Below are positions 844 through 64,000 of a stretch of DNA of 64,000 nucleotides, piece by piece. A model generated the notes under the pieces. That model was not told the DNA's origin. It did not search any database and was given only the letters and a program-made list of their open reading frames with translations. The translations under genes and the position numbers were made by a program. The stretch spans positions 4,392 to 68,391 of the forward strand of contig JAJYWF010000002.1 in the NCBI GenBank assembly GCA_021791635.1. The letters are read 5' to 3'. Each line of letters opens with the position of its first letter. Within the stretch, counting starts at the first letter, position 1. This DNA is from Actinomycetes bacterium (GTDB taxonomy: Bacteria; Actinomycetota; Acidimicrobiia; Acidimicrobiales; RAAP-2).

Positions 844-2472
844 TCACCCGACCCCGGTCGGGTAGTGACCGACGACGGCGCCGTCGACGGCGCGCTCCAG
901 GCGCCTCCACGCCGCCACGGCCTCGACTCTCTCGACCGGCTCGAGCACCACCTCGTCACCAGGTCGACACTGCCCGATCTTCCAGCAGTCGGCACGCACG
1001 ACGACGGCCACGACGGGGTAGCCGCCGAGGGTGCCGTGGTCCGGTCCCAGGATCACCGGTCGCCCGTCGGGGGGCACCTGGATGGCGCCGATCACCATCC
1101 CCTCGGAGCCGATCTCTCCCGGGACCCGTTCGACCTCCGCATCGCCCACCGGGCGAAGGCGGACGCCGACGCGGTCACTCGACGAATCCACCACAAAACG
1201 TGCCGTGCCCAGGCGATCGAGCGCGTCGAGGGCGAACCACGAGAGGTGCGGGCCGGCGACGACCCTCAGACGCCACGGGGATCCGGTGGTCTTCTGGTCC
1301 TGCCCGAGCATGCCCGGGACCAGGTGGTCGCCGAGGTACCCGGCCCGGTCGGCCATTCCCAGGACGTCGCCGACCTCCAGCGCGCCCGGCCCGATCCGCG
1401 ACAGCACATCGCTCGAGCGGCTCCCCATCACCGTGGGGACGTCTACCCCTCCGGGCCACGCAACGTAGGTGCGGAGCCCCGAGCCGAGCCGGCGCACCGC
1501 CACCTGTTGGCCAGCCGACACCGGTACCACCCGGCCTGAGTCGACCCGTCGATCGTCCACGGCGACCTCGGCGGATCCGCCGACGACCGCCAGGTAGGTC
1601 GTGGCCAGGCAGCGGAGCACCGGGCCGTGTGCCGTCACCTCCAACGCTGCGGCCCCACGCCGGTTCCCGACCAACAGGTTCGCCAGCCCGTGGGCCAGTG
1701 CATCGGCCGGGCCGGCGCGCGGGACGCCAAGGTGGGCTACGCCCAGACGTCCACCGTCTTCGACCAAGGTGTGCATACCGGGGTCCAGCACGGCGAAACG
1801 AGGATCGGACACCGACTCCCACGGTCGACGCGACGATCGGGAGCTCCCTTGCGAAGTAGTAGGCCCAGGAGTCAGGTCGGGGACGAAGCGGACGGCGTCC
1901 CCTGGAGACAGCAGCCCGTAGGGCGGCACCTCTGGGTCAAAAGGCCGCCACCGGGTCCGGCCCACCAGTTGCCACCCCCCGGGCGATGCCCGGGGGTACA
2001 CCGCGGCGAATCCCCCGGCGAGAGCGACCGATCCGGCTGGGACCGACGGTCTCGGGGTGTCCCGGCGGGGCACCGAGCACAACCGCTCGGGCAGCCCGCT
2101 CAGGTACCCGAAGCCCGGTGCGAAGCCCACCATCTCCACCCGGAACGTGGCACTGGTCATCAGCTCGGTCAGCTCTTCTGGGCTCACCTGGGCCGACCGG
2201 CAGACGAACTCAAGGTCGGGCCCGTCGAACGCCGTCGGCACGGTGTGAGTGCGCCGCACCTCGGGCACCGCAGCACGATCCAGGTCCAGTCGGGCCACCT
2301 GCTCGACCAACGACTCCACGTCGGTGACGGTCGGATCGATCTCGACGAGCACCGACCGGCTCCCGGGCACCACTTCGACGACACCGGGCAGGTCAGCCGC
2401 GGCGATCCCCGCCGCCCAGTCGGGAACCCGCCGGGACCGGTCGAAGGTGAAGAGCATGCCGGCGTCCCCCAT
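844..2472 (-). CDS. pxpB-pxpC: Fused 5-oxoprolinase subunits B and C (KipI/KipA, allophanate-hydrolase subunit 1+2 family)
   Basis: The N-terminal half is KipI-like (GFAPGFGYL, GGWQLVGRT). The C-terminal half is KipA-like (GVPRAGPAD, GGYPVVAVV). The two are joined by a Ser/Arg-rich linker. ATG at 2472 chosen (MGDAGMLF). Confidence 0.8.
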   Translation of the reverse strand: MGDAGMLFTFDRSRRVPDWAAGIAAADLPGVVEVVPGSRSVLVEIDPTVTDVESLVEQVARLDLDRAAVPEVRRTHTVPTAFDGPDLEFVCRSAQVSPEELTELMTSATFRVEMVGFAPGFGYLSGLPERLCSVPRRDTPRPSVPAGSVALAGGFAAVYPRASPGGWQLVGRTRWRPFDPEVPPYGLLSPGDAVRFVPDLTPGPTTSQGSSRSSRRPWESVSDPRFAVLDPGMHTLVEDGGRLGVAHLGVPRAGPADALAHGLANLLVGNRRGAAALEVTAHGPVLRCLATTYLAVVGGSAEVAVDDRRVDSGRVVPVSAGQQVAVRRLGSGLRTYVAWPGGVDVPTVMGSRSSDVLSRIGPGALEVGDVLGMADRAGYLGDHLVPGMLGQDQKTTGSPWRLRVVAGPHLSWFALDALDRLGTARFVVDSSSDRVGVRLRPVGDAEVERVPGEIGSEGMVIGAIQVPPDGRPVILGPDHGTLGGYPVVAVVVRADCWKIGQCRPGDEVVLEPVERVEAVAAWRRLERAVDGAVVGHYPTGVG

Positions 2473-2501
2473 CGGCACGCCGGAGCGGCCGGCGCCGGCG
2501 A

Positions 2502-3310
2502 TCACCGCACCTGCGCTCGGAGCACAGCCGATCCGACGTAGGGAGCCACGACCACACCCGCCGCCTCCAGGGCCCGCCGGACCCCGGTGACCAGGGCGGG
2601 GGCGCCCGGGGTGTCGCCGTGGACACACAGCGTGTCGCAGAGGAGCGGGAGGGGGTCACCCGACACCGGCGTCACCGTGCCGGTCAGCACGATCGACAGG
2701 GCCTGCTCCACGGCCTCACCGACGTCGGTGATCACCGAGCTCGCTTCCGACCTCGGCACCAGGGTCCCGTCCGATCGGTAGCGGCGGTCGCAGAAGGCCT
2801 CGGCCACGACCGGGACGCCGAAGGTGGGGGGCACCCCGGCCGTGGCCGCGCCGGCCGGCATCACCAGGGCGACCGGCGCCGCGTCACCGCCCGAGCTCCC
2901 GCCCGCGAGCACGTCCGAGATCGCTGCGGCACAAGCTTCGTCGCCGGCCGTCCGGTGGTACAGGGCGCCGTGGGGCTTGACCGAACGGATGCCGGTACCC
3001 CACTCGCGAGTCACCGTGGCAAGGGCGTCGAGCTGCCGGCGGACGTCGGTGGCGACCTGGACGGGGCTCCGCTCAATGTCCCTCCGGCCGAACCCGGCGC
3101 GGTCGGGATACGAGGGATGGGCCCCGACCACGACCCCGCACGACACGGCGGCAGCCACGACCCGTCGCATGGTGGTGTCGTCGCCGGCGTGGTAGCCGCA
3201 AGCCACGTGGACGGTCGTGGTCGCGGCCAGGAGCGCTTCTTCGATGCGGGCCGACGCGTCACCGGTGGATTCGCCCACATCGGCATTGAGATCGACCCTC
3301 CGGACGGCGT

Positions 3311-3314
<4 letters not shown>
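2502..3314 (-). CDS. pxpA: 5-oxoprolinase subunit A (LamB/YcsF family)
   Basis: DLNADVGE N-terminal motif and 270 aa length. The ATG overlaps the lhr stop (ATGA at 3311-3314). Confidence 0.85.
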
Positions 3315-7858
<4,544 letters not shown>

Positions 7859-7906
7859 CCCCCTATTCCACCAGGAGGGAGTGACGGGCGCACCGCTGCC
7901 CCACGG

Positions 7907-8896
7907 TCACCTCCCCGTCACGCTCATCCGATCGACCCCCTCGGGATCGTCGAGGGCCGAGGCCACCGCCGCCCGACCGGCGTCGATCATCTGGGCCGAT
8001 GCCGTGAAGTCACGGTAGTCGGCTCCGGGCTCGCCTCCGGCGGTGAGCACGGTCAGCTCGACGTCGGGGGGCACCATGGCCAGCTCCCGGGCGAAACGGG
8101 CGTGGATCGCCACGAAGAACGCCGTGAGCACTGCTTCGACCGGACGGCTGGGAACCGGGGGCCGGTAGTCGAGCGGACCGCAGAGGAGGACGTAGATCCG
8201 CTTGATCCCGGCGTGAAGCGGTCGGCTGATGGGGACGTTGTCGACCACGCCCCCGTCCACCAGGAGCTCGCCTTCGAACTCGACCGGCGGGAAGATCGCC
8301 GGGATCGCCGCCGAAGCCAGCACTGCGTCCACGACGGGCCCGCGCGTGATCCAGCGCTCCTGGCCCCCGGTGAGCGACGTCGCCACCACTTCCAAGGGGA
8401 TCAGCGCGTCCTCCAGCAGCTCGAACGCCACCCCCTCCTCCAAGATGCGGCGCAGCCCGGTGTTCGGATGGACCGAGGATCGGTGCTGGAGGAACCTCCA
8501 GGGACCGTGGGCCCGGCCCCGCGGGAAGACCGTCTCTCCTGAGAGGTTCCTCCACACGTTCTCCAAGCGCTCCATTCCTCCGGGCGTGGGATCGCCGCAG
8601 TACGCCGCGGCGTTCACCGCTCCGACCGAGGCGCCGTACACGCGGTCGGCACGGATCCCGCGGTCGACCAGCTCGGCCAGCATCCCCACCTGTACGGCCC
8701 CACGGCTGCCCCCGCCGGCCAGTACGAAGGCGGTGAGGCCGGTCCCGACCGGTGCGGGATCGCCCGGCACTCCGACGAGAGCGCCGATCCACCTCCGGCC
8801 CCGGGACCCACGGGCCCGCCACGGACGGAAGGGGTGCCGCGCCTCTTCGGGCTCGCGGTCCCCCACGCTGCGATGATCGCCGGCCGAGCTCGTCAA
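7907..8896 (-). CDS. Patatin-like phospholipase
   Basis: GGGSRG oxyanion motif, GASVGA (GxSxG) nucleophile and DGG catalytic Asp. The first in-frame start is TTG at 8896; the true start may lie downstream. Confidence 0.8.
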   Translation of the reverse strand: MTSSAGDHRSVGDREPEEARHPFRPWRARGSRGRRWIGALVGVPGDPAPVGTGLTAFVLAGGGSRGAVQVGMLAELVDRGIRADRVYGASVGAVNAAAYCGDPTPGGMERLENVWRNLSGETVFPRGRAHGPWRFLQHRSSVHPNTGLRRILEEGVAFELLEDALIPLEVVATSLTGGQERWITRGPVVDAVLASAAIPAIFPPVEFEGELLVDGGVVDNVPISRPLHAGIKRIYVLLCGPLDYRPPVPSRPVEAVLTAFFVAIHARFARELAMVPPDVELTVLTAGGEPGADYRDFTASAQMIDAGRAAVASALDDPEGVDRMSVTGR

Positions 8897-9129
8897 TCCG
8901 AGCGCTCCCTGGCCGTCCCGTGGCGTCCGTGCGGACGGTGCCCGTTCGTCCGGGGGGAAGCGATCCGTCCGTCGTCGGCGTCAGGAACCCGCTGTTGACG
9001 GCGGGCCCACTCTGCTCGTCCCACCCGGTCACGGCGTACCGCCCAGGAGACGGTGATGACGGCCAGGACGACGAACGCCACCACGAACAGGCCGAAGACG
9101 ACATCGAAGGCGACGGCCACCGCCAACAT
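8893..9129 (-). CDS. Small single-pass membrane protein (hypothetical)
   Basis: ATG at 9129 gives MLAVAVAFDVVFGLFVVAFVVLAVITVSWAV plus a basic tail. Third-position GC is high. Its stop overlaps the patatin TTG start (8893-8896). Confidence 0.4.
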   Translation of the reverse strand: MLAVAVAFDVVFGLFVVAFVVLAVITVSWAVRRDRVGRAEWARRQQRVPDADDGRIASPRTNGHRPHGRHGTARERSD

Positions 9130-15767: not shown

Positions 15768-15852
15768 GGAGGGATGGCAGAGCGGACGAATGCGCGGCTC
15801 TTGAAAAGCCGTGGGACTCCGGTTCCCGTGGGTTCGAATCCCACTCCCTCCG
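15768..15852 (+). tRNA. tRNA-Ser, anticodon TGA
   Basis: Hand-folded cloverleaf: acceptor GGAGGGA/TCCCTCC, anticodon stem CGGCT/AGCCG with loop CTTGAAA, long variable arm, and T arm GTGGG-TTCGAAT-CCCAC. No encoded CCA. Confidence 0.9.
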
Positions 15853-15935
15853 CTCTTATTGGGCGGCAGTCCGTGGGCGCCAGTCCGTGGACGGCGTTCA
15901 GGCCGGACCGACGCGCCGGCACCTGGGCTCGGCCG

Positions 15936-16882: not shown

Positions 16883-17653
16883 GTGACCCTGATGGACGAG
16901 CCCGCGCTCCGCCAACTCCTGGCCGACGTCACGTCGGGGACGCTCACGCCCGACGACGCCGTCCAGCGCCTCCGGCGCCTGCCCTTCGCCGACTTGGGTT
17001 TCGCCCGGGTCGACCACCATCGTTCGCTGCGCCAGTCCCTGCCCGAGGCCGTGTACGGACCGGGGAAGACCCCCGAGCAGTGCGCCGCCATCGTGGTCGA
17101 GATGCTGTCTGAGCCCGGGGGGCCGGTCCTGCTCACCCGCGCCGACCCCCTCCAGCTTCGAGCCTCCGTGGAAGCGGTGCGGGGGAAGGGATACCCGGAG
17201 GGAACGGTGACCCGATCAGGCCCGACGGCGACCGCGTCCTGGCGACCGGCCGACCCCCGTCCCGGAAAGATCCTGATCATCACCGCCGGGACCGCCGACC
17301 TTCCCGTGGCCGACGAGTGCGGCACCGTCCTCGCATCGCTGGGGTACCGACCGACGCTGCTGAGCGACTGCGGGGTGGCCGGCGTGCACCGCCTCATCGC
17401 CACGGCCGACGAGCTCATCGACGCCGATGCTGTCGTCGTGGTAGCCGGGATGGAGGGCGCCCTGGCCAGCGTCGTCGGCGGCATCACGCCGGCGCCGGTC
17501 GTCGCGGTGCCCACCGGCGTGGGGTATGGCGCCGCCTTCGAGGGTGTCACGGCCCTGCTGGCCATGTTGGCCTCGTGCGCCGCCGGGGTGACGGTGGTCG
17601 GGATCGACAACGGCTTCGGGGCGGCGTGCGCCGTCGCCCGGCTCCTGCAGTGA
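16883..17653 (+). CDS. larB: Nickel-pincer cofactor biosynthesis protein LarB (PurE-like carboxylase/hydrolase)
   Basis: ITAGTADLPVADE and VVVAGMEGALASVVGG motifs. GTG at 16883, or in-frame ATG at 16892. Confidence 0.85.
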   Translation: MTLMDEPALRQLLADVTSGTLTPDDAVQRLRRLPFADLGFARVDHHRSLRQSLPEAVYGPGKTPEQCAAIVVEMLSEPGGPVLLTRADPLQLRASVEAVRGKGYPEGTVTRSGPTATASWRPADPRPGKILIITAGTADLPVADECGTVLASLGYRPTLLSDCGVAGVHRLIATADELIDADAVVVVAGMEGALASVVGGITPAPVVAVPTGVGYGAAFEGVTALLAMLASCAAGVTVVGIDNGFGAACAVARLLQ

Positions 17654-17694
17654 GCACCCCCGAATCGACCGCGGAGTCCCCCACGACACCGGCG

Positions 17695-18912
17695 ATGCAG
17701 TCGGTGGCCTGGTTCCACTGCTTCGCCGGTATCGCCGGCGATATGGCCCTCGGGAGCCTGCTCGACGCCGGTGCCGACCTCGACGAGGTCCTCAACCTGC
17801 TCCACCGGATACCGCTCGACGGGTGGGGGCTGGAGGTCGAGGAGGTCCTGCGCGGCGGCATGGCCTGCACCCGGGCCCTGGTCACCGTCACCGGCACGAG
17901 TGCCCCGAGCGACGATGTCGGTCGGACCCACGCCCGCATCGCCGAGCTGGTGAACCTGGCCCGCCTCCCCGAGCGGGTCACCGACCGAACCCTGTCGATC
18001 TTCGACCAGCTGGCCCGAGCCGAAGGTCGCGTGCACCGTACGGATCCGAGCGCCGTGCACTTCCACGAGGTCGGAGGGCACGACGCCATCATCGACGTGG
18101 TGGGCACCGCGGCAGCCCTCGAAGTGCTCGGCGTCGACGCCGTGGCCTCCTCCCCGGTAGCCGTCGGGACGGGCACCGTCCGCACCGATCACGGGATCTT
18201 GCCGAACCCGTCGCCGGCGGTCGTGCGCCTGCTCCATGGGATCCCGACCTACGGTCGGGCCACGACGGTGGAGCTGACCACGCCGACCGGTGCTGCCATC
18301 CTGGCGGCACTTTGCGAGGACTTCGGGCCCATGCCCCCGATGCAGATCGGCGCTACCGGCTTCGGTGCCGGCGCCGCCGAGCTCGACGAGCTGCCGAACT
18401 GCGCCCAGGTCGTGGTGGGGCTGTCGACCGATCCCGGGTCCATCGGCGACGGCCAACCCGTCATGGTTCTCGAGACCAACGTTGACGACGCCACCGGCGA
18501 GCAGCTCGCCCACGCCGTGACCCGGCTCATGGAGGCCGGCGCCCACGACGCCTGGATCACCCCGATCGTCATGAAGAAGGGACGCCCGGCCCACACCCTG
18601 CACGCGCTCTGCGACCGGGACCAGACTGCCCCCTTGAGGGAGATCATCCGTCTGACCACCGGCACGTTCGGCGTCCGGACCCTCAGTGGCGTCCGGTGGC
18701 CGGTGCCCCGGGGCTTCGCCGGCGTCGAGGTCGGCGGGCACCACCTGACCGTGAAGGTCGGTCCCGAACGGGTCAAGGCCGAGTTCGACGACGTGGCCGA
18801 CGTGGCAGACCGCACCGGCCTGGGAGTCCACGAGGTGAGCTCCCGAGCCGAAGAGGCGTGGCGGCGGGGGCAGGAGACGCCGGCGGAGCAGCGCGAGGGG
18901 GGGACACGATGA
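17695..18912 (+). CDS. larC: Nickel insertion protein LarC (DUF111)
   Basis: N-terminal FHCFAGIAGDM, about 405 aa. An alternative GTG at 17650 overlaps the larB stop. Confidence 0.85.
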   Translation: MQSVAWFHCFAGIAGDMALGSLLDAGADLDEVLNLLHRIPLDGWGLEVEEVLRGGMACTRALVTVTGTSAPSDDVGRTHARIAELVNLARLPERVTDRTLSIFDQLARAEGRVHRTDPSAVHFHEVGGHDAIIDVVGTAAALEVLGVDAVASSPVAVGTGTVRTDHGILPNPSPAVVRLLHGIPTYGRATTVELTTPTGAAILAALCEDFGPMPPMQIGATGFGAGAAELDELPNCAQVVVGLSTDPGSIGDGQPVMVLETNVDDATGEQLAHAVTRLMEAGAHDAWITPIVMKKGRPAHTLHALCDRDQTAPLREIIRLTTGTFGVRTLSGVRWPVPRGFAGVEVGGHHLTVKVGPERVKAEFDDVADVADRTGLGVHEVSSRAEEAWRRGQETPAEQREGGTR

Positions 18913-28977: not shown

Positions 28978-29253
28978 TCAGCCGCCTGCGACGGCCGGGA
29001 CGATGGACACCGTCTGCCCGTCGGTCACGGTCGTGGCCAGCCCGTCGAGGAACCGCACGTCCTCGTCGGCCACGAAGACGTTGACGAAGCGCCGCAGGCC
29101 GCCGTCGTCGTCGAAGAGCCTGGGGGCGAACCCGGGGTGGGCCCCGTCGAGAGCGTGCAGCACCTCTCCGACGGTGGACCCTTCGACCTGCACCTCGCCA
29201 GCGCCGGCGGTCAGGGTGCGCAGCTGGGTGGGAATGCGGACGGACACGGTCAT
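28978..29253 (-). CDS. ThiS/MoaD-family ubiquitin-like sulfur carrier (CysO/MetO-like), ends in GG
   Basis: 91 aa with C-terminal ...SIVPAVAGG immediately before the stop. AAGGAG lies 7 nt upstream of the ATG at 29253. Confidence 0.8.
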   Translation of the reverse strand: MTVSVRIPTQLRTLTAGAGEVQVEGSTVGEVLHALDGAHPGFAPRLFDDDGGLRRFVNVFVADEDVRFLDGLATTVTDGQTVSIVPAVAGG

Positions 29254-29314
29254 CTCGTTGGCTCCTTGCTGTGGGCTGGGCATGAGGTCGGGGGGACGTC
29301 GGGGCGGGGCGGGG

Positions 29315-30595
29315 TCATGCCGGAGGCGGGGTTGCGCCCCTGTCCTCGCTGCCCCCGAGATCGTCCACGACGGTGACGGCCTCGTCAAACGCACTCAGGG
29401 TCGGGGCGATGGTGACCGTCGGACCGGTCCCCGGAGAAAGCGCCTCGACCGTCTTCAGCCCGTGCCCGGTCACCAGAGCCACCACCCGTTCGTCGCGGCG
29501 TACCACCCCCGATGCCGCCAGCTTGGCCAGCGTGGCGATGGTCACCCCACCGGCAGTCTCGGCGAAGATCCCCTCGGTCCGGGCCAGGAGCCGGATCCCG
29601 GCTCGGATCTCGTCGTCGGTGACCGCGGCGCAGCCACCGCCCGAGTCGCGGATGGCGGACAGCGCGTACCAGCCGTCGGCCGGGTTCCCGATGGCCAACG
29701 ACTTGGCGATGGTCGAAGGCTTGACCGGGCGGATGGCGTCGGCCCCTTCGGCGAACGCCGTGGCCACCGGAGAGCACCCGGCCGCCTGGGCCCCCGAGAT
29801 CCGCACCGAAGGACGACGGTCCAGCAATCCCACCTCTCCCAGCTCGGCGAACCCCTTGGCCACCTTGGTGAGCTGGCTCCCCGAGGCGATGGGGACCACC
29901 ACGTGGTCCGGTGCCTCCCAGCCGAGCTGCTCGGCGACCTCGAAGGCCAGGGTCTTGGACCCTTCGGCGTAGTACGTGCGGATGTTCACGTTGACGAACG
30001 CCCAGGTCGGGCGCTCGCTGGTCAGCTCGGCACACAAGCGGTTGACGTCGTCGTAGGTTCCCTCGACCGACACCACGGTCCCGCCGTACACGGCGGTCAT
30101 CGTGACTTTGGCCGTCTCGAGGTCGTGGGGGATGAGGACCACCGACGTCATCCCGGCCCGGGCGGCGTGGGCCGCCACCGAGTTGGCCAGGTTCCCCGTC
30201 GACGCGCACGCCGCCACCTTGAAACCGAGTTGGCGGGCTTTGGTGAGAGCCACCGACACGACTCGGTCCTTGAACGACCCGGTCGGGTTGGCCGTGTCGT
30301 CCTTGATCCAGAGCTCTCCCAGGCCAAGCTCGGCCGCCAAGCGGTCGGCCCGGACCAGCGGGGTGAAGCCGGCACCCAGGTCGACCGGGGCGTCGTCGTC
30401 GACCGGGAGCAGGTCCCGGTAGCGCCAGATCGAACGGGGGCCCTCGGCGATGCGGCCCCTGCTGACCACTGCGGCGATTCCGCGGTAGTCGTAGTCGACC
30501 TCCAACGGGCCGAAGCAGTAGTCGCACACGTGGAGCGCTTCGGCCGGGAACTGGCGACCGCATTCCCGACAGCGCAGTCCCGTGACATGGTCCAT
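29315..30595 (-). CDS. Threonine-synthase-family PLP enzyme with an N-terminal Cys4 zinc ribbon (candidate O-phosphohomoserine-dependent homocysteine synthase, MetM-like)
   Basis: CRECG...CDYC ribbon and PLP lysine motif PTGSFKDR, 426 aa. It is preceded by a SAM riboswitch-like leader. Confidence 0.85.
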   Translation of the reverse strand: MDHVTGLRCRECGRQFPAEALHVCDYCFGPLEVDYDYRGIAAVVSRGRIAEGPRSIWRYRDLLPVDDDAPVDLGAGFTPLVRADRLAAELGLGELWIKDDTANPTGSFKDRVVSVALTKARQLGFKVAACASTGNLANSVAAHAARAGMTSVVLIPHDLETAKVTMTAVYGGTVVSVEGTYDDVNRLCAELTSERPTWAFVNVNIRTYYAEGSKTLAFEVAEQLGWEAPDHVVVPIASGSQLTKVAKGFAELGEVGLLDRRPSVRISGAQAAGCSPVATAFAEGADAIRPVKPSTIAKSLAIGNPADGWYALSAIRDSGGGCAAVTDDEIRAGIRLLARTEGIFAETAGGVTIATLAKLAASGVVRRDERVVALVTGHGLKTVEALSPGTGPTVTIAPTLSAFDEAVTVVDDLGGSEDRGATPPPA

Positions 30596-30599
30596 CTCC

Positions 30600-30730
30600 G
30601 TCCTCCTCATCGGTCGGGCGTTGGCACCTGTTGTCGGCGCCCACGGGACCACGGTGTGGTCGGGAAGCCGGCAATGGTTGCCGCGGCGTCACAGGGCCCG
30701 TCCCTCAGCCGCTCTGGATGATCCCTCCAT
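30600..30730 (-). promoter_or_regulatory. SAM-I-clan riboswitch (SAM-I or a SAM-IV / I-IV variant)
   Basis: The minus-strand leader reads AUCAUCCAGAGCGGCUGAGGGACGGGCCCUGUGACGCCGCGGCAACC...AGGUGCCAACGCC...GAUGAGGAGGACGGAG-AUG. This matches the conserved S-box core. The P1 3' strand abuts the SD. Confidence 0.8.
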
Positions 30731-54356: not shown

Positions 54357-54938
54357 TCAGCGACCGTGCACGAACTGCATCGCCTCGGCCCGGGTGGCGG
54401 CGTCGGAGCGGAACAAGCCGCGGACCGACGAGGTGACCGTCAAGGTGCCCGGCTTCTTCACCCCGCGCATCGACATGCACAAGTGCTCGGCCTCGACTAC
54501 CACCAGGACACCGCGGGGGGCCAACACCCGCTCGACCGCCTCGGCGATCTGGGTGGTCATCCGTTCTTGGACCTGGAGCCGTCGGGCGTACCCGTCGACC
54601 AGGCGGGCCAGCTTCGACAGCCCGGTGATCCGTCCGTCGACGCCGGGGATGTAGGCGACGTGGGCCCGACCGATGAAGGGAACGAGGTGGTGCTCGCACA
54701 GCGAGGCGAAGGGGATGTCCCGGACCATCACCATCTCGTCGTGGTCCGCGGCGAACGTCACGGTGAGATGCCGGGCCGGATCGTCGGCCATGCCGGCGAA
54801 GAGCTCCTCGTACATCGCCGCCACCCGCGTGGGGGTGTCGGTGAGCCCGTCGCGGTCCGGGTCCTCGCCGATAGCGGCCAGGATCTCGGTCACCGCACGC
54901 CGGACCCGCTCGGCGTCCACTTTCCCCGCCGGGCTCAC
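54357..54938 (-). CDS. folE: GTP cyclohydrolase I
   Basis: [10 protein letters not shown] and [12 protein letters not shown] overlaps the hpt stop. Confidence 0.93.
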
Positions 54939-56449
54939 GAACCGTCGCCGAGGTAGCGGTGGACGCCGGCCAGGTTCCGGTAGCGCTCGGCCACGTCGAG
55001 CCCGTACCCGACGACGAACTCCGATGGGATGACGAAGCCGACGTAGCGCAGGTCGAGCTCGACCCGCTGCTCACCTTCTTTGACCAAGAGCGCGCACACG
55101 TCCACCGAGGACGGCCGGCGAGCTTGGAGGTACTTGCGCAGGTAGTTCAACGTGAGACCGCTGTCGATGATGTCCTCGACCACGAGGACCCGTCGGCCGG
55201 TCAGCTCGGCGTCGAGGTCCTTCACGATGCGGACCACCCCGGAGGTCCGGGTGGCACTGCCGTAGGAGGACACGGCCATGAAGTCCACGTCGACCGGGAG
55301 CTCGATCGCCCGGCAGAGGTCGCTCATGAACGTCATGGCCCCCTTGAGCACGCCCACCAGGAGCGGCGGGTCACCGGCGTAGTCGGCGGTGATGGACGCC
55401 CCCATCTCGGCAACCCGGGCAGCAATGGCCTCGGCACTCACCACCACCGGGCCCACCGCCGGCATCGCCCACTCGGGCGCCACCCTGGCCATCTCCTCGG
55501 TCGGCACGCCGCCGACCTTACCGGACACCGGTGGGACCAGCTCCAGGCGACCGCCGCGCCGGCGGACCCGGCGCCCTCCGGTCACTTCGGTGGCCACCGC
55601 CGACCCCGAGGCCACGTCCAGCACCCGGTCCACGTCGGCCAGGCTCGGTGGGTACCGGTCCTCGGGACCGGCCGTTCCACCGATCGAAGGTGCCCCCACA
55701 GCCTGGCGCAGCCACCGGCGGACAGCCCGGCGGGCCAGGGGGCGGGCCACGCCGGCCAGTGAGCGGGCGTCGGTCGGGTCCGGGACGGCGTCGGAGGCCA
55801 GAAGGTCGAGGAGGACCGCCTCGGCCCCCACGACGTCGGCGTGGCGTGCCAGCAGGGGTACCGGGTCACGCCGGGCCATCTCCGCACACAGGGGGAGCAG
55901 CTCGTGACGGATCCGGTTGCGAAGGTGGCGGCGATCCTCGTTGGACCGGTCCTCCACCCAGGTGAGGCCCATGGCCCGGCACACGGCCCGGGTGTCGGCC
56001 CGGCGGACTTCGAGAAGCGGGTGGGTCGGTCCGGGACGCATCGCCGCCAAACCGTCGAGCCCGGCACCACGCAGCAGGTTCACCAGGACCGTCTCGGCCT
56101 GGTCGTCCATCGTGTGCCCGGTGGCCGTCCCGCCCGGGAGCACGGCGAAGCGCGCTGCCCGGGCCCGGGCCTCCAGGTTCGGTCCATCTTCCAGCACCAC
56201 CCGCTCGGTGCGGAACGCCGCTCCGAGCCGAACAGCGGCCGCGGCGACGACCTCCGCCTCCTCGGCCGAGCCGGGCCGCAACCCGTGATCGACGTGGATC
56301 GCCGTCACCTGGCAACCCGAAGCCACCGCCAAGACCAGCAGGGCCAGCGAGTCGGCGCCGCCGGACACCGCGCACGGGAGCGGGCTCCCCGGCGGCGGGA
56401 AGGTGGATCGCCTGAGAGCGGCGGTGACCTCCGCCGGCCAGCCGCTCAC
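54935..56449 (-). CDS. tilS-hpt: In-frame fusion: tRNA(Ile)-lysidine synthase (N) + hypoxanthine phosphoribosyltransferase (C)
   Basis: PP-loop SGGADSLAL in the N-terminal half and PRPP motif [14 protein letters not shown] in the C-terminal half. No stop codon lies between them. GTG at 56449 overlaps the upstream stop. Confidence 0.8.
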
Positions 56450-58603: not shown

Positions 58604-59812
58604 ATGGGAGACCCGATGACCCGACCGCCCGCCGAGCTGGGCATCGATCTGATGAGCGGAGCGTTCTTCGGGGGTGACCCGTACCCGGCGTTCGACTGGA
58701 TGCGCCGGCACGAGCCCGTGTTCCTGGACGAAGCCAACGGCCTGTGGGCGTTGGCCGCATACCGTGACGTGAAGTCGGCATCCACCGATACCGCCACCTT
58801 CTCCAACGCCGGGGGTGTCCGGCCCCGGTTCCCGCCCCTGCCCATGATGATCGACTTCGACGCCCCCGAGCACGTCCGGCGGCGCCGGCTGGTCAGCTCC
58901 GGATTCACGCCCGCTCGGGTCCGGGCCATGGAGGACCACGTGCGGCGCATCTGCGACGACGTCATCGACCGGGTGTGCGAGCTCGGCTCCTGCGACTTCG
59001 TGACCGACATCGCCGCTCCCCTCCCGCTGGCCGTGATCGGCGACATGCTGGGCGTCGACCCCGACGACCGGGCCGACCTGCTCCGCTGGTCCGAGGACAT
59101 GCTCCGGTCCCAGGGTGTGATGACCGACGAGGCCGTCACCGGCGCCATGCGAGCCTTCGCCGAGTACACCGAGTACATGGAACCGGTGCTGGAGGCACGG
59201 CGCCGTACCGGGTCCAGCGACGACCTGGTCGGCATCCTCGTGCACGCCGAGATCGACGGGGACCGGCTCGACCGCGACTCGCTGATCCACGAGACGCTCC
59301 TCATCCTCGTGGGCGGGGACGAGACCACCAGGCATGTGATGAGTGGTGGGATGGAGGTCCTCCTCGGTCACCGTGACCAGCTGGAGCGACTTCGCCGGGA
59401 CCGGACGCTCCTGGCCGGCGCGGTGGAAGAGATGCTCCGTTGGGTCTCGCCGATCAAGAACATGGTCCGCACCGTGACCACCGACACCCGGATCGGGGAT
59501 CGCGAGCTCAAGGCCGGCGACGAGGTCCTGCTCCTCTACCCCTCGGCCAACCGCGACGCCGACGTCTTCGACGAGCCGGACCGCTTCGACATCACGAGGA
59601 GCCCCAATCCCCACCTGGCCTTCGGCTTCGGGGCCCACTTCTGCCTGGGCAACCAGCTGGCCCGCCTCGAGCTCCGGGTCATGCTGGACCGCCTCCTCAC
59701 CCGCCTCCCAGACCTGGACCTGGCCGGGCCCGGCCCGTTCCCCCGGCGGCAGGCCAACTTCATCACCGGGATCGAGTCCATGCCCGTCACGTTCACCCCG
59801 ACGTCCCCGTGA
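58604..59812 (+). CDS. Cytochrome P450
   Basis: Heme-thiolate loop FGFGAHFCLG and ETTRH (I-helix-like). An alternative ATG at 58616 has a better SD (GGGAGA). Confidence 0.9.
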   Translation: MGDPMTRPPAELGIDLMSGAFFGGDPYPAFDWMRRHEPVFLDEANGLWALAAYRDVKSASTDTATFSNAGGVRPRFPPLPMMIDFDAPEHVRRRRLVSSGFTPARVRAMEDHVRRICDDVIDRVCELGSCDFVTDIAAPLPLAVIGDMLGVDPDDRADLLRWSEDMLRSQGVMTDEAVTGAMRAFAEYTEYMEPVLEARRRTGSSDDLVGILVHAEIDGDRLDRDSLIHETLLILVGGDETTRHVMSGGMEVLLGHRDQLERLRRDRTLLAGAVEEMLRWVSPIKNMVRTVTTDTRIGDRELKAGDEVLLLYPSANRDADVFDEPDRFDITRSPNPHLAFGFGAHFCLGNQLARLELRVMLDRLLTRLPDLDLAGPGPFPRRQANFITGIESMPVTFTPTSP

Positions 59813-60645
59813 GCGGAGGGTTGGAGACAACGACCGCCCTGGTCACCGGCGGTGGGAGCGGCATCGGACTGGCTACCGCCGCCCGCCTGGCCGCCGACGG
59901 GGCGGCGGTCACCATCTGCGGCCGCACCGAGAGCAAGCTGGCCGGGGCACTGCCCACCATCGACGCCGCCGCCCGGACGGCCCGTGGAACGGGTTCGGGA
60001 GCCGCCGCCCCTGCGCCCTCCACCTACGTCGTCGCCGACGTGACCGTCGAAGAGCAGATCGCCGCTGCCGTGGCGGCTGCCGCCGGCGACCGGGGACTGG
60101 ACATCCTCTTCGCCTGCGCCGGGGGTGCCCACCACATGGGGCCGCTCGCCGACGCCGACGCCGGGGCCGTTCGGGCCACCGTCGAGCTCAACCTCATGGG
60201 CTCGTTCCTGTCGGTGAAGCACGCCGCTGCCGCCATGCGCACCACCGGTGGCGGGTCGATGGTCCTCATGTCCTCGGGAGCCGGTCACTTCCCGCACCGC
60301 TGGCTGTGGGCCTACGGGATGGCGAAAGCCGGCATCGAGGCGCTGTGCGCGTCGGCGGCCGAGGAGCTCGGTGGGGACGGCATCCGGGTCAACGCCGTGC
60401 AGCCGGGCATCGTCGACGACGAGCTCATGGCCCCGATCACCGCCGGAGGCGCGCTCCTCGACGACTACCTCGACCAGATGCCGGTGCGCCGGCTGGGAAC
60501 CGTCGACGACGTGGCCGCGGCGGTCCGGTTCCTGGCCGGACCCGAAGCCGGGTGGATCACCGGAGTGTGCCTGGCCGTCGACGGGGGACACCACCTCAGG
60601 CGCGGGGCGGACTACTCCCTCCTGTTCGCTCCTTCGGGACCCTGA
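59809..60645 (+). CDS. SDR-family oxidoreductase
   Basis: TGGGSGIG and YGMAKAG (YxxxK). GTG overlaps the P450 stop. Confidence 0.85.
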   Translation: MSGGLETTTALVTGGGSGIGLATAARLAADGAAVTICGRTESKLAGALPTIDAAARTARGTGSGAAAPAPSTYVVADVTVEEQIAAAVAAAAGDRGLDILFACAGGAHHMGPLADADAGAVRATVELNLMGSFLSVKHAAAAMRTTGGGSMVLMSSGAGHFPHRWLWAYGMAKAGIEALCASAAEELGGDGIRVNAVQPGIVDDELMAPITAGGALLDDYLDQMPVRRLGTVDDVAAAVRFLAGPEAGWITGVCLAVDGGHHLRRGADYSLLFAPSGP

Positions 60646-61473
60646 GTGGTGCCGGACGCTCCCGCCGCGGCGGAGCACGAGGTGAGGAGCTTGGCCGGCG
60701 TCGGCGTCGTGGTGTGGCCGGCGCTGGAGGATCTCGGCGTGGACGTGGTCGTCACCACCCGCCAGGGCGGGGTCTCGACGGGTCCCTACCGGTCGCTCAA
60801 CCTCGGTCTCGGCGTGGGCGACGACCCCGGGGCAGTGCTGGAGAACCGGCGGCGGGCGGCGGGCGCGCTCGGGGCGTCGCTCCATGACCTGGTGGTCGGC
60901 GCGCAGGTCCACGGTCGGACGGCCACGATCGTGGGGTCCGAGGACCGGGGCCGGGGCGCGGCCGAAGGCGCCGCGGCCGTACCCGACACCGACGCCCTGG
61001 TCACCCGGTCCCGCGATCTGGTCCTCGTGACGTTGGTCGCCGACTGCGTCCCGATCGTCCTGGTGGACCCCGAGGCCGGGGTGCTCGCCACGGTCCACGC
61101 CGGGTGGAGAGGTACCGCCGGGCGGGTGGTGGATGCGGCCGTCGCCGCCATGTCCACGCTCGGAGCACGACCGGAGCGGATGGTCGCCGGGATCGGTCCG
61201 GCGGTCTCGCGGGACACCTACGAGGTGGACCACGACGTCGCCGAGGCGGTACGGGCCGGGACCGGCGACGACCTGACCGCGACTCCGGCGGGGGAGGGGC
61301 GCTGGCTCGTGGACCTGCCCGGAGCGAACCGGCGGCTCTTGGAGGCAGCCGGCGTGCCGTCGTCGTCGGTCTGGGTGATGGGGCTCACCACCGGAGTCCG
61401 GGGCCCGTTCTACAGCCACCGGGCCGAGCGCCCCTGCGGGAGGTTCGGCCTCCTGGCCCGGCTCCGGCCGTGA
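60646..61473 (+). CDS. pgeF: Peptidoglycan editing factor PgeF (YfiH/DUF152, laccase-domain protein)
   Basis: VHAGWRGTAG, ADCVPI and FYSHRAE. Confidence 0.85.
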   Translation: MVPDAPAAAEHEVRSLAGVGVVVWPALEDLGVDVVVTTRQGGVSTGPYRSLNLGLGVGDDPGAVLENRRRAAGALGASLHDLVVGAQVHGRTATIVGSEDRGRGAAEGAAAVPDTDALVTRSRDLVLVTLVADCVPIVLVDPEAGVLATVHAGWRGTAGRVVDAAVAAMSTLGARPERMVAGIGPAVSRDTYEVDHDVAEAVRAGTGDDLTATPAGEGRWLVDLPGANRRLLEAAGVPSSSVWVMGLTTGVRGPFYSHRAERPCGRFGLLARLRP

Positions 61474-61544
61474 CCCGGGCCTCGTAGCATGGTGCCATCC
61501 CGCCAGGTCGCCGACCTCCGGTGGCCGGGGACGGAGAGGACCCG

Positions 61545-62879
61545 ATGAGCCCTACGCCGGATGCGGCCGATCGATTCGTCTACGACCGCTACACGCTGGA
61601 TCCCGACGCCGGTCAGCTCACGTGCCACTACCGGATGGGCAAGCGTCCCTTCGCCGAGCGGTTCACTTTCGGCCCGGCCGGTGACTGGGGATCGCCCGCC
61701 CTCGACGCCGCGGCGCGAACCGTCTTCCTCCTGGCCGGCGTCTCCTACTTCAAGACGAAGGCGCCTCGGGTGGTCGATCTCGGGGACCTCGCCACCACGG
61801 TCGCCGAGCGCCGGTTCCTGCGCCGGTTCTACGTCGAAGGCCTGGCCGAGTTCGCCTATCGGAACCATCTGGACCTCTCGGGCTTGGAGGTACACGGCCC
61901 GAGCCTCGACCGTCGGGAACCTGTGAGCTACCGCGGTGAGCCGGGACGACCGATAGTCCCCTTCGGCGGGGGCATCGACTCCATCGTCACCGCCGAGCTC
62001 GTCCGCCGTCGGCATCCCGGGGCGCGCCTGTGCATCGTCGACCGTCCCGACGATCGTTTCGAGGCCATCGAGCGGCCGGCCGCAGTCACCGGGCTCCCGG
62101 TGTCGCGGGTGGAGCGGGCGGTGGACCCGGCGGTGATCCGGTCCGCCGAGCTGGGGTTCCTGAACGGGCACGTGCCGGTGACCGGGATCATCTCGGCCGT
62201 GGCCGTGGTGGCCGCCGTGCTCGGTGGGCATGACTCGGTGGTGATGTCCAACGAATGGTCGGCCTCGATCGGGAACCTGGTCGTCGACGGCCACACGGTG
62301 AACCACCAGTGGTCCAAGGGCTTCGACTTCGAGAAGGAGCTCCGTGGGCACCTGGCCGCCACGCTCCAGCCGGGGGTCGACTACTACTCCCTGTTGCGCC
62401 CGTACTCGGAGCTGTGGGTGGCCAGGAGGTTCGCGGCCCTGGGGACGTACCACCGGGTCTTTCGGAGCTGTAACCGGGCGTTCCACATCGACCGCGGCCG
62501 CCGCCTCGACCACTGGTGCGGCACTTGCGACAAGTGCTGCTTCACCGACCTCGTCCTGGCACCGTTCCTCTCGACCGCCGAACTGTCCGACATCTTCGAC
62601 GGGCACGAGCCGCTGGCCAACGAGGACCTGGACAACCGCTTCCGGGCACTGCTCGGGCTCCGGCTCGAGACCAAGCCCTTCGAGTGCGTCGGAGACGTCG
62701 AAGAGTGCCGGGCCGCGCTCTCGCTGGCTGCGGCACGGCCCGACCGGCTCGATACCCCCCTACTCCACAAGCTCGTCGCCGAAGTCGGACCGGACGTCGC
62801 CGACCCGGCACCGCTGTTCGGGCTCATGGGCGAGCACTTCATCCCCGATGCCGACACCCCCCAAGATCAGCTGGTCTGA
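61545..62879 (+). CDS. PP-loop-like protein; candidate UDP-MurNAc-L-Ala-L-Glu epimerase (MurL-like)
   Basis: PFGGGIDSIV (degenerate SGGxDS) and C-terminal CGTCDKCC. ATG at 61545 is preceded by GGAGAGGA. It is immediately upstream of, and overlaps, a MurD-like ligase. Confidence 0.6.
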   Translation: MSPTPDAADRFVYDRYTLDPDAGQLTCHYRMGKRPFAERFTFGPAGDWGSPALDAAARTVFLLAGVSYFKTKAPRVVDLGDLATTVAERRFLRRFYVEGLAEFAYRNHLDLSGLEVHGPSLDRREPVSYRGEPGRPIVPFGGGIDSIVTAELVRRRHPGARLCIVDRPDDRFEAIERPAAVTGLPVSRVERAVDPAVIRSAELGFLNGHVPVTGIISAVAVVAAVLGGHDSVVMSNEWSASIGNLVVDGHTVNHQWSKGFDFEKELRGHLAATLQPGVDYYSLLRPYSELWVARRFAALGTYHRVFRSCNRAFHIDRGRRLDHWCGTCDKCCFTDLVLAPFLSTAELSDIFDGHEPLANEDLDNRFRALLGLRLETKPFECVGDVEECRAALSLAAARPDRLDTPLLHKLVAEVGPDVADPAPLFGLMGEHFIPDADTPQDQLV

Positions 62880-64000
62880 CCTTCCCGGTCAGGCCGTCGG
62901 CCTCTGGGGGCTCGGCGTAGAGGGCCGAGCCAACTTGCGACGGGTTCGGGCCCTGGGGATCACTCCCGTCCTGGTGGACGACCACCCGACCGGCGACCTC
63001 GTAGACGACCTGGTCGTCCTGCCCACTTCGGACGGAGGCCTGGAGGCGCTCCAGCGGTGCGACGTGGTGGTCAAGACCCCTGGCGTCAGCCGCCATCGTC
63101 GGGACGTAGAAACCCTCACCCGGCAGGGGGTGAAGGTGGTCGGGGGGCTGGGGCTCTGGATGGAGGAGGTCGACCGCTCGCGGGTCCTGTGCATCACCGG
63201 AACCAAGGGCAAGAGCACGACGGCGGCCATCGCCGGTCATCTACTCGAGGGAATGGGGTACCGGTGCCTGGTCGCCGGGAACATCGGGCTCCTCCCCTAC
63301 GACCCCGCACTTTCGGACCTCTCCTACGACTACTGGGTGGTCGAGACGTCGAGCTTCCAGGTGACCGACCTGGCCGCGTCACCCCCGGTGGTGGCGGTCA
63401 CCTCCCTGCATCCGGACCACTTGGACTGGCACGGGGACGTCGAGACCTACTACCGCGAGAAGCTGGCACTGTGCTCCCGGCCCGGTGCGCTGGTGACTGT
63501 GGCCGCCGGAGACGACCCGGTGCTCCGCGCCCACCGGCACCTGCTCGGCCACGAAGTCCGATGGGTGTCCGCCGACGGCGACGCGGGCTCGTGGACCGAC
63601 GCGCTGGCTCTCCGGGGGCGGCACAACCGCACCAACGCGTTGATCGCCCGGACCTGCCTTCGAGAGATGGGGGTGACTGAAGCGTCGGACGACGACTGCG
63701 TCACCCGGGCCGCTGCCGGATTCCGGGGCCTCGCCAGCCGCCTGTCGGAGGTCGGCACGGTCGGTGGAGTCGAGTTCGTCGACGACAGCCTTTCCACCAA
63801 CGTCCTGGCCACCCTCGCCGCGCTCGCCACCTACCCGCGGCGCCGGGTCGCACTCATCGTGGGCGGGCACGACCGGGGGATCGACTACGGGCCGCTGGCC
63901 GAGGGCCTGGCCAACAGGATGGCCAGCGGTGCCGGGAGCGGGGCGGGCTCCAGCGCGGCCAGCGGGGCGGAGCCCCTGATCGTCCTCACGCTTCCTGGAG
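62848..64000 (+). CDS. MurD-like Mur ligase (candidate MurD2), truncated by the window end
   Basis: Frame 1 is open from ATG 62848 to the window end, so it is not in the ORF track. GLWGLGVEGRA Rossmann N-terminus, ITGTKGKSTT P-loop, and DDSLSTN where canonical MurD has DSKATN. Confidence 0.8.
   Translation, partial: MPTPPKISWSDLPGQAVGLWGLGVEGRANLRRVRALGITPVLVDDHPTGDLVDDLVVLPTSDGGLEALQRCDVVVKTPGVSRHRRDVETLTRQGVKVVGGLGLWMEEVDRSRVLCITGTKGKSTTAAIAGHLLEGMGYRCLVAGNIGLLPYDPALSDLSYDYWVVETSSFQVTDLAASPPVVAVTSLHPDHLDWHGDVETYYREKLALCSRPGALVTVAAGDDPVLRAHRHLLGHEVRWVSADGDAGSWTDALALRGRHNRTNALIARTCLREMGVTEASDDDCVTRAAAGFRGLASRLSEVGTVGGVEFVDDSLSTNVLATLAALATYPRRRVALIVGGHDRGIDYGPLAEGLANRMASGAGSGAGSSAASGAEPLIVLTLPG

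Follow-up and report, generated by a model that had tools for sequence, protein, structure and literature searches.

In Xanthomonas oryzae, an alternative pathway of D-glutamate formation composed of MurD2 (XOO_1320) and MurL (XOO_1319) was described in 2017 (Feng et al. 2017; reviewed in PMC8788868 and PMC5808125). Its published distribution comprises some Gamma- and Alphaproteobacteria as well as the Micromonosporaceae, the only actinobacteria named, and activity of MurD2/MurL from Micromonospora sp. and Salinispora tropica was confirmed in vitro (PMC8788868). The stretch of DNA analysed here (hereafter the window) comprises 64,000 nucleotides (nt) from an uncultivated actinobacterium of the order Acidimicrobiales (assembly GCA_021791635.1, contig JAJYWF010000002.1, positions 4,392 to 68,391) and carries at its 3' end genes for a peptidoglycan editing factor (pgeF), a MurL protein (murL) and a MurD-family ligase. 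This trio belongs to the already described MurD2/MurL system rather than to a new one, and it very likely constitutes a working MurD2/MurL module with attached PgeF, making position 2 of the stem peptide. A preliminary description of the sequence had equated the gene pair with the Xanthomonas system; the MurL profile and domains, the MurD2-type residues of the ligase and the same gene order with overlapping genes all agree with this.

In the proposed pathway, MurC would provide UDP-MurNAc-L-Ala, while PgeF would hydrolyse mis-made UDP-MurNAc-Ser or UDP-MurNAc-Gly back to UDP-MurNAc, such that only the L-Ala monopeptide proceeds. The MurD2-type ligase would then add L-glutamate, not D-glutamate, at the expense of ATP. 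Subsequently, MurL would flip L-Glu to D-Glu within the precursor in an ATP-dependent reaction, most likely via adenylation of the Glu α-carboxylate on its PP-loop, QueC-like domain. By this route the cell would need no glutamate racemase. Both the L-Glu specificity of the ligase and the epimerase activity of MurL are predictions from sequence.

Locus organisation and gene order

The window DNA (71 % G+C) ends in five tightly packed genes on the plus strand, the last three of which are, as initially described, consecutive: (i) pgeF (yfiH/ylmD family, 60646-61473), encoding a peptidoglycan editing amidase, (ii) murL (ATG 61545 to TGA 62879), encoding a protein of 444 amino acids (aa), and (iii) the MurD-family ligase gene (ATG 62848 to beyond 64000). 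The pgeF product comprises 275 aa if translated from GTG 60646 or 274 aa from 60649, the latter start being called in contig L001, the murL of which is identical to that of the window. Between pgeF and murL lies a gap of 71 nt, which contains the sequence GGAGAGG 7 nt before the murL ATG. The ligase gene overlaps murL by exactly 32 nt and is interrupted by the window end after the first 384 of its 465 codons, both in agreement with the preliminary description; the full 465-aa ligase was read from contig L001. Co-transcription of pgeF, murL and murD2 is probable. A promoter/terminator consensus scan of the window DNA was uninformative at this G+C content.

Two alternative gene starts were dropped. 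For MurL, GTG 61521, the 452-aa product of which has no database record, was rejected in favour of ATG 61545, which yields the called product and has a good ribosome-binding site. The start chosen by the gene caller for the ligase (TTG, 436 aa) would remove the GxGxxG loop; alignments of orthologues start within residues 1-7 of the protein translated from ATG 62848, and the ligase of one relative was called at 466 aa, likewise with a 32-nt overlap with murL. Beyond the window, about 120 nt past the ligase stop codon, contig L001 encodes the N-terminus of an IS256-type transposase (L001:12824-13045). Several contigs with identical murL stop at such an IS256-like transposase fragment, which probably explains why the assemblies break after the ligase gene. 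In a relative with 71 % identical MurL, a convergent FAD-linked oxidase gene and an amino-acid permease gene are found downstream of the ligase gene, where L001 has the transposase.

Gene order was surveyed in the 80 best loci by MurL match, out of at least 568 GTDB species genomes encoding a MurL relative. A MurD2-type ligase gene is located directly downstream of murL in all 79 testable loci, mostly overlapping it (median distance from murL end to ligase start, -13 nt). The direct linkage of pgeF, already recognised in the preliminary description, is real and widely retained: pgeF directly precedes murL in 69 of the 80 loci and is found at a distance of some 2 kb in 2 further loci, while 9 have no adjacent pgeF. 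The surveyed loci are labelled Acidimicrobiales, Frankia/Protofrankia, Streptosporangiaceae, Pseudonocardiaceae, Nakamurella, Kineosporiaceae and Nocardiopsaceae. The trio adjoins a sigma/anti-sigma pair, tilS-hpt and fol genes, at a chromosomal position conserved among relatives whose MurL is 62-71 % identical. Xanthomonas sacchari displays the same overlapping order of murL followed by the ligase gene, with no pgeF alongside.

Fusions of MurL and the ligase (830-890 aa) were also encountered, with MurL first in P0194, P0202 and P0239 and the ligase first in P0150; one of these fusions stems from an alphaproteobacterial metagenome-assembled genome (MAG). A seeming PgeF-MurL fusion (P0121, 739 aa) was rejected as a likely assembly or frameshift artefact, as it is a singleton, encoded on a long contig, in which the PgeF C-terminus is frameshifted and the reading frame continues through the spacer. 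In a MAG labelled Gemmatimonadota (L036), a murL-murD2 pair of the actinobacterial type (58-61 % identical) occurs in the absence of pgeF, reflecting horizontal transfer or, alternatively, faulty binning.

Assignment of MurL, the ligase and PgeF

The 444-aa protein had been taken as MurL-like in the preliminary description, and profile comparison of 61545-62879 yields a full-length MurL match together with MurL domains. The protein matches the NCBIfam model NF041275 with an E-value of 7.8e-101 and 338 bits (protein residues 15-444, model positions 6-438 of 447), and precomputed annotation assigns to it the Pfam families PF26299 (MurL_N) and PF26298 (MurL_epimerase_C). A local Pfam scan returned no family for MurL, the MurL families being present in the precomputed annotation only. 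Identity to the annotated MurL of X. sacchari amounts to 38.9 % (E 6e-67); the latter protein, the record of which was found in a plasmid collection, reaches 836 bits on NF041275, a Xanthomonadales-specific equivalog model with a cut-off of 700 bits. The motifs GGGxDS, NExSAS, NHQWSK, SCN, WCxxCxKC, KPFECVG and GHxPVT are invariant among actinobacterial MurL, Xanthomonas MurL and a plasmid-borne paralogue, and this invariance holds for 16 aligned MurL sequences.

The closest homologues of the window MurL (81 % and 71 % identity) are encoded in MAGs labelled Acidimicrobiales and Actinomycetota. The locus of the window is also contained in MAG GCA_027396375.1 (contigs DAHYJQ01), and murL is present in the closed Acidimicrobiales relative OY969891.1. 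At large, clustering of the family at 50 % identity gives 2403 clusters for E ≤ 1e-3 and 1130 for E ≤ 1e-30. At NCBI, three close homologues (P0003, P0004 and P0017) bear the name 'endonuclease domain-containing protein', and JGI already labels many actinobacterial MurL homologues as epimerase; neither Pfam nor NCBIfam revealed an endonuclease family in the window MurL. MurL-like paralogues with 34-37 % identity occur on Pseudonocardia plasmids (L090, i.e., P. alni plasmid pPaSha1, 7788-9188; also H2 and H4). The paralogue of pPaSha1 has no Mur ligase alongside; its neighbour is a WD40 protein gene, while genes for a transglycosylase, a GH16 protein and ParA are located farther upstream. These plasmid-encoded proteins were rejected as orthologues.

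The MurL structure was modelled with AlphaFold2 (predicted local distance difference test, pLDDT, 88; predicted template-modelling score, pTM, 0.90). Foldseek comparison of this model with the PDB returned mostly PP-loop ATP pyrophosphatases, which also covered their targets best, headed by QueC (2pg3 and 3bl5; target-normalised template-modelling score 0.62, probability 1.0) and followed by QueC-like Cap9, LarE, NAD synthetase and TtuA; a PDB search by sequence gave chance matches only. The 'degenerate PP-loop' (PFGGGIDS) and the CGTCDKCC motif noted in the preliminary description are both present, and the fold of the model supports the PP-loop assignment. PFGGGIDS, a PP-loop-like ATP-binding motif, corresponds to MurL residues 139-146 (61959-61982, plus strand); its core (GGGxDS) is unchanged between actinobacteria and Xanthomonas. 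The region 62469-62540 (plus strand) encodes four cysteines that are likewise invariant, namely C309 (in SCNR) as well as C325, C328 and C331 (in WCGTCDKCC, 62514-62540), and a further invariant Cys resides in KPFECVG. In QueC, the zinc site is formed by a C...CxxCxxC pattern, and QueC-type PP-loop enzymes consume ATP and release AMP. The same cysteine pattern, together with the structural match to QueC, suggests a QueC-like metal site at the four MurL cysteines.

The central domain of the MurL model has the same fold as QueC, LarE, NAD synthetase and TtuA and a cysteine cluster like that of the QueC zinc site, with GGGxDS where those enzymes have SGGxDS. In contrast to the QueC-type enzymes, to which no sequence-level match was found, MurL possesses additional N- and C-terminal domains, and its reaction is an epimerisation rather than an amidation or sulfur transfer. 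Published MurL converts one ATP to AMP during Mg-dependent, one-way L-to-D epimerisation, for which adenylation of the Glu α-carboxylate was proposed. The GGGIDS loop, the QueC-like cysteines and the Cys of KPFECVG would fit both the ATP-to-AMP epimerisation and the proposed adenylation. MurL has been considered in reviews to be without recognisable domains, a view which the modelled PP-loop/QueC-like fold may usefully refine.

The ligase comprises the Pfam domains Mur_ligase_M, MurD-like_N and Mur_ligase_C. Both hallmarks named in the preliminary description, a MurD-type N-terminus (GxGxxG) and the P-loop GTKGKST (63199-63219, plus strand), are present; together with VDDSLSTN, these motifs are invariant in 71 orthologous ligases, and neither they nor the MurL motifs are due to chance. 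The catalytic residues of MurD (K115, N138, E157, H183, K198, R302, T321 and S415) are all retained. For comparison, E. coli K-12 MurD (b0088), X. sacchari MurD2, 71 murL-adjacent ligases and 52 metagenomic, mraY-adjacent actinobacterial MurD proteins from the division and cell wall (dcw) cluster were used. At the position of E. coli K319, lysine is found in 49 of the 52 dcw MurD, isoleucine in X. sacchari MurD2, and leucine in the window ligase as well as in all 71 MurL-linked ligases. At K348, likewise lysine in most dcw MurD (47/52), X. sacchari MurD2, the window ligase and the 71 MurL-linked ligases without exception have arginine. Alanine at position 414, conserved in 50 of the 52 dcw MurD, is replaced by proline in X. 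sacchari MurD2, in the window ligase and in 67 of the 71 MurL-linked ligases, and L416 (methionine or leucine in 38 of the 52) by phenylalanine in X. sacchari MurD2, the window ligase and all 71. Only at D182 does the window ligase, along with all 71 MurL-linked ligases, share the aspartate of E. coli and of 47 of the 52 dcw MurD, X. sacchari MurD2 having glutamate there. Of the five positions compared, four thus carry residues of MurD2 type in the window ligase.

Residues D190 (63415-63417), L315 (63790-63792) and R343 (63874-63876) of the ligase are encoded on the plus strand within the window, while P433 and F435 lie past its end and were read from L001. R343, P433 and F435 correspond in position to R358, P433 and F435 of X. 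oryzae (K348, A414 and L416 of E. coli), which are among the residues setting X. oryzae MurD2 apart (PMC8788868). The Lys-to-Leu change between INDSKATN of E. coli MurD and VDDSLSTN, pointed out in the preliminary description, is genuine; its designation as a D-Glu-contacting segment was imprecise, since this Lys is K319 (mature numbering) and not K348, the classical D-Glu contact within GGDGK, the place of which is taken by Arg in the window ligase. In E. coli MurD, K319 is located near ADP, and the exchange K319T allows the enzyme to accept L-Glu (PMC8788868).

The comparison with MurD and MurD2 that had been called for thus places the ligase closer to MurD2 by residues, bit scores and identity. 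It shares 34.6 % identity (172 bits) with X. sacchari MurD2 and 27.5 % (116 bits) with E. coli MurD; the MurL-linked ligases share a median of 39 % identical residues with X. sacchari MurD2, as against 28 % with the 52 actinobacterial dcw MurD. Compared with canonical MurD (E. coli b0088 and actinobacterial dcw MurD), the window ligase has the same three-domain architecture and all catalytic residues and passes TIGR01087, but differs by K319L, K348R, A414P and L416F at an identity of 27-28 %; moreover, its gene is located next to murL rather than between mraY and ftsW. The murD model TIGR01087 (cut-off 212 bits) cannot separate the two types, because X. sacchari MurD2 (298 bits) passes it as well as the full-length window ligase (258 bits); X. 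sacchari MurD2 (L089) also bears the database name D-glutamate ligase. Since the signature residues as well as identity and bit scores favour MurD2, the ligase belongs with the MurD2 type by sequence, which points to L-Glu as its probable substrate.

The first gene of the trio had been described as encoding the PgeF/YfiH editing factor, which is confirmed. PgeF belongs to Pfam PF02578 (Cu-oxidase_4, DUF152; E 5e-73) and matches YlmD and YfiH structures in the PDB with E-values from 7e-43 to 4e-21, the best being Geobacillus YlmD (6t0y, E 7e-43); on TIGR00726 it reaches 130 bits, slightly under the equivalog cut-off of 141 bits. The catalytic triad of YfiH (Cys107-His124-Asp89) and its substrate/specificity residues are defined in PMC8844914. 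By alignment, the window PgeF and nearly all of 65 cluster-linked PgeF orthologues share with E. coli YfiH the residues Q69, H71, D89, C107, H124, W127, R128, R228 and R235. Compared with E. coli YfiH and Geobacillus YlmD (PMC8844914, PMC12280929), the window PgeF thus has the same fold, the complete Cys-His-Asp triad and the shared residues Q69, H71, W127, R128, R228 and R235; unlike E. coli YfiH, it carries His at the position of Y227, where cluster-linked orthologues mostly have Asp. Its gene is located upstream of murL and not after ftsZ. According to published work, PgeF/YfiH, which is conserved across bacteria, cleaves UDP-MurNAc-Ser and UDP-MurNAc-Gly with strong preference for monopeptides over dipeptides. 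These preferred substrates, UDP-MurNAc-monopeptides, coincide with the substrate pool of the ligase.

Relation to the dcw cluster and alternative explanations

The preliminary description had placed the module outside the dcw cluster, which is true for this window: a search that covered the 64 kb found no dcw gene, no murI (glutamate racemase) and no D-amino-acid aminotransferase domain. The window genes are of the housekeeping type (clpC, radA, disA, carD, ispD, panC, nadB, nadC, coaX, folK, folB, folP, folE and tilS-hpt).

The dcw clusters of relatives with the MurL route that were compared belong to Frankia-type genomes, Streptosporangiaceae-labelled MAGs and Nakamurella. Ordinary actinobacterial dcw loci have the order mraY-murD-ftsW, and their pgeF follows ftsZ, 7-8.3 kb past mraY. 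The trio takes the place of murD in Frankia sp. Cr3 (murE-murF-mraY-pgeF-murL-murD2-ftsW-murG-murC), and in Protofrankia coriariae and the Datisca glomerata symbiont it is inverted and located in or beside the dcw cluster. In six metagenomic loci, which stem from Nakamurella and from a clade of MAGs labelled Streptosporangiaceae, ftsW follows straight after mraY and a MurD-like gene is missing; the Streptosporangiaceae-type cluster is devoid of both murD and pgeF. Two MAGs (DATKRG01 and DATIXO01) contain a murD-less dcw contig (mraY-ftsW) and a pgeF-murL-murD2 contig in the same assembly, as matched by accession prefix and subject to the usual caveat of MAG binning. The complete genome of Nakamurella antarctica (L200, CP034170.1) likewise has a dcw cluster without murD, in which pgeF is retained after ftsZ. 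Next to murL, pgeF is found in the Nakamurella MAG loci L025 and L039; judged from this difference, position or copy number of pgeF varies within the genus. A second type of murD-less dcw cluster (L107) turned out to belong to Nakamurella and not to Acidimicrobiales. Scanning the 80 loci for the FtsZ signature produced one match, which is located in no long open reading frame and was dismissed as a chance match.

According to the published view, bacteria with MurD2/MurL are without D-Glu-forming genes and MurD2 is their working MurD. The murD-less dcw clusters of the relatives support this role of MurD2, making a redundant second system unlikely for the present genome, of which the window ligase would be the only MurD.

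Several observations nevertheless weigh against a working MurD2/MurL module. The window MurL, at 338 bits, remains far under the 700-bit cut-off of NF041275, and a Pseudonocardia plasmid MurL paralogue without adjacent ligase reaches almost the same score (323 bits); since such a paralogue scores nearly equally, the score alone is no proof of orthology, and the orthology of the window MurL rests on synteny. The Foldseek E-values of the MurL model are weak (1e-3 to 1e-2). Because the exchange E197D altered the stereospecificity of X. oryzae MurD2, which has Glu197 at the D182 position (PMC8788868), the Asp of the window ligase at this position matters: judged by the E197 rule alone, D-Glu or both isomers could serve as substrates of the ligase. 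Finally, with the search confined to the 64-kb window, the pair could act as a redundant or accessory route beside a canonical dcw murD and murI or a D-amino-acid aminotransferase, with a conditional role (D-Glu shortage) or another product. The location of the trio away from any dcw gene, the IS256-like transposase after the ligase gene, hinting at a mobile neighbourhood, and the other contexts of the MurL family represented by the ligase-less plasmid paralogues would be compatible with such a route. It is nonetheless improbable, as murL-bearing relatives are without a separate dcw murD (the two MAGs and N. antarctica; in Frankia, the trio itself occupies the murD slot), the chromosomal position of the trio is conserved in relatives with 62-71 % identical MurL, and D-Glu-forming genes are absent from MurD2/MurL bacteria in the published view. 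Still less probable is that the ligase represents a regular MurD with specificity for D-Glu, relocated from the dcw cluster and accompanied by a 444-aa protein of other function. Its score on TIGR01087 (258 versus 212 bits), the Asp at position 182 as in canonical MurD and the endonuclease name of three MurL homologues might be read this way. Yet X. sacchari MurD2 passes the same model and is also named D-glutamate ligase, the exchanges K319L, K348R, A414P and L416F separate the ligase from the 52 dcw MurD in agreement with Xanthomonas MurD2, and the 444-aa protein has a full-length, highly significant match to MurL, with no endonuclease family detected by Pfam or NCBIfam.

With the MurD2/MurL module as the preferred reading, the meaning of the pgeF linkage is a separate matter. 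It is quite plausible, at somewhat less than an even chance, that the linkage is a relic of shared dcw origin without meaning specific to the L-Glu route: pgeF and murD are both dcw genes in ordinary actinobacteria (pgeF 7-8.3 kb downstream of mraY), the Frankia trio resides inside the dcw cluster, Xanthomonas and 9 of the 80 actinobacterial loci have no pgeF next to murL, and N. antarctica keeps pgeF after ftsZ despite the loss of murD from its dcw cluster. On the other hand, ftsW, murG, murC, ftsQ and ftsZ lie between murD and pgeF in a canonical dcw cluster, and placing the two on either side of murL required rearrangement; the arrangement is maintained in 69 of 80 species-level loci across several actinobacterial families, neither murD nor pgeF remains in the Streptosporangiaceae-type dcw cluster, and PgeF acts on exactly the substrate pool of the ligase. 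One may tentatively speculate, though this is rather doubtful at present, that the trio forms a single 'proofread, ligate, epimerise' unit in many Actinomycetota that replaces murD and pgeF of the dcw cluster. PgeF could then serve a task specific to the L-Glu route, by clearing mis-made or un-epimerised precursors or by gating the supply of UDP-MurNAc-L-Ala, and the ligase could read L-Glu differently, with Asp and Leu as compared to Glu and Ile in Xanthomonas.

Further window features and comparison with described systems

The two other genes of the plus-strand group at the 3' end encode a cytochrome P450 (58604-59812) and a short-chain dehydrogenase (SDR, 59809-60645). They overlap by 4 nt and are translationally coupled, and the stop codon of the SDR gene directly abuts the pgeF start. 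This pair lies 2-7 kb upstream of pgeF in Acidimicrobiaceae loci that are more distantly related and, hence, is probably an unrelated neighbour. The tilS-hpt gene (54935-56449, minus strand; L001:3391-4905) encodes a single 504-aa product with TilS (ATP_bind_3) and Hpt-like phosphoribosyltransferase domains, unlike the relative L093, in which hpt was called as a separate gene. A S-adenosylmethionine (SAM) riboswitch (Rfam RF00162, 56.7 bits; 30604-30724, minus strand) is located at the start of a gene for a pyridoxal phosphate-dependent enzyme (29315-30688), followed by a ThiS-family gene (28978-29394); the two genes resemble a CysO/CysM-like sulfur amino-acid module. The sole tRNA of the window is tRNA-Ser(TGA) at 15768-15853 (plus strand). 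The regions 844-8980 and 17113-18912 contain 5-oxoprolinase-type genes (fused CT_C_D/CT_A_B; LamB/YcsF) as well as genes for a 1531-aa Lhr helicase, a patatin-like lipase and a LarC-type nickel insertion protein.

The literature searched contains no mention of (i) a conserved pgeF-murL-murD2 trio complemented by a dcw cluster that has lost murD and pgeF, (ii) the replacement of K319 by Leu or Ile common to both MurD2 lineages, or (iii) a PP-loop/QueC-like fold of MurL; these three are moderate additions to a known pathway. The locus extends the MurD2/MurL route, which has been proposed as a narrow-spectrum antibiotic target, to Acidimicrobiales. With at least 568 GTDB species genomes encoding a MurL relative, and with Frankia, Protofrankia, Nakamurella, Pseudonocardia and Streptosporangiaceae-labelled MAGs among the best 80 loci, the route is common in soil actinobacteria. 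The names 'D-glutamate ligase' for MurD2 and 'endonuclease domain-containing' for some MurL look like systematic misannotations, and Leu or Ile at K319 together with the Arg, Pro and Phe residues provides a simple sequence rule to separate MurD2 from MurD. The pgeF linkage and the predicted PP-loop/QueC-like fold offer leads on fidelity control and on the mechanism of MurL.

Compared with the Xanthomonas system, the window pair comprises the same two protein families, in the same order and with the same stop/start overlap as at the X. sacchari locus. The ligase shares with Xanthomonas MurD2 the Arg, Pro and Phe at the R358, P433 and F435 positions as well as a hydrophobic residue where E. coli MurD has K319, and MurL shares the motifs GGGxDS, NHQWSK, SCN, CxxCxKC and KPFECVG with its Xanthomonas counterpart. 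Differences concern the moderate identity of 35-39 %, Asp instead of Glu197 and Leu instead of Ile at K319 in the ligase, and pgeF, which is joined to the operon in the window and is not found beside the Xanthomonas pair. The MurD2/MurL proteins of Micromonospora and Salinispora, from the same phylum and presumably forming the same pathway, constitute the published actinobacterial precedent; the host of the window, an Acidimicrobiales-type actinobacterium, represents a group outside the published distribution of MurD2/MurL.

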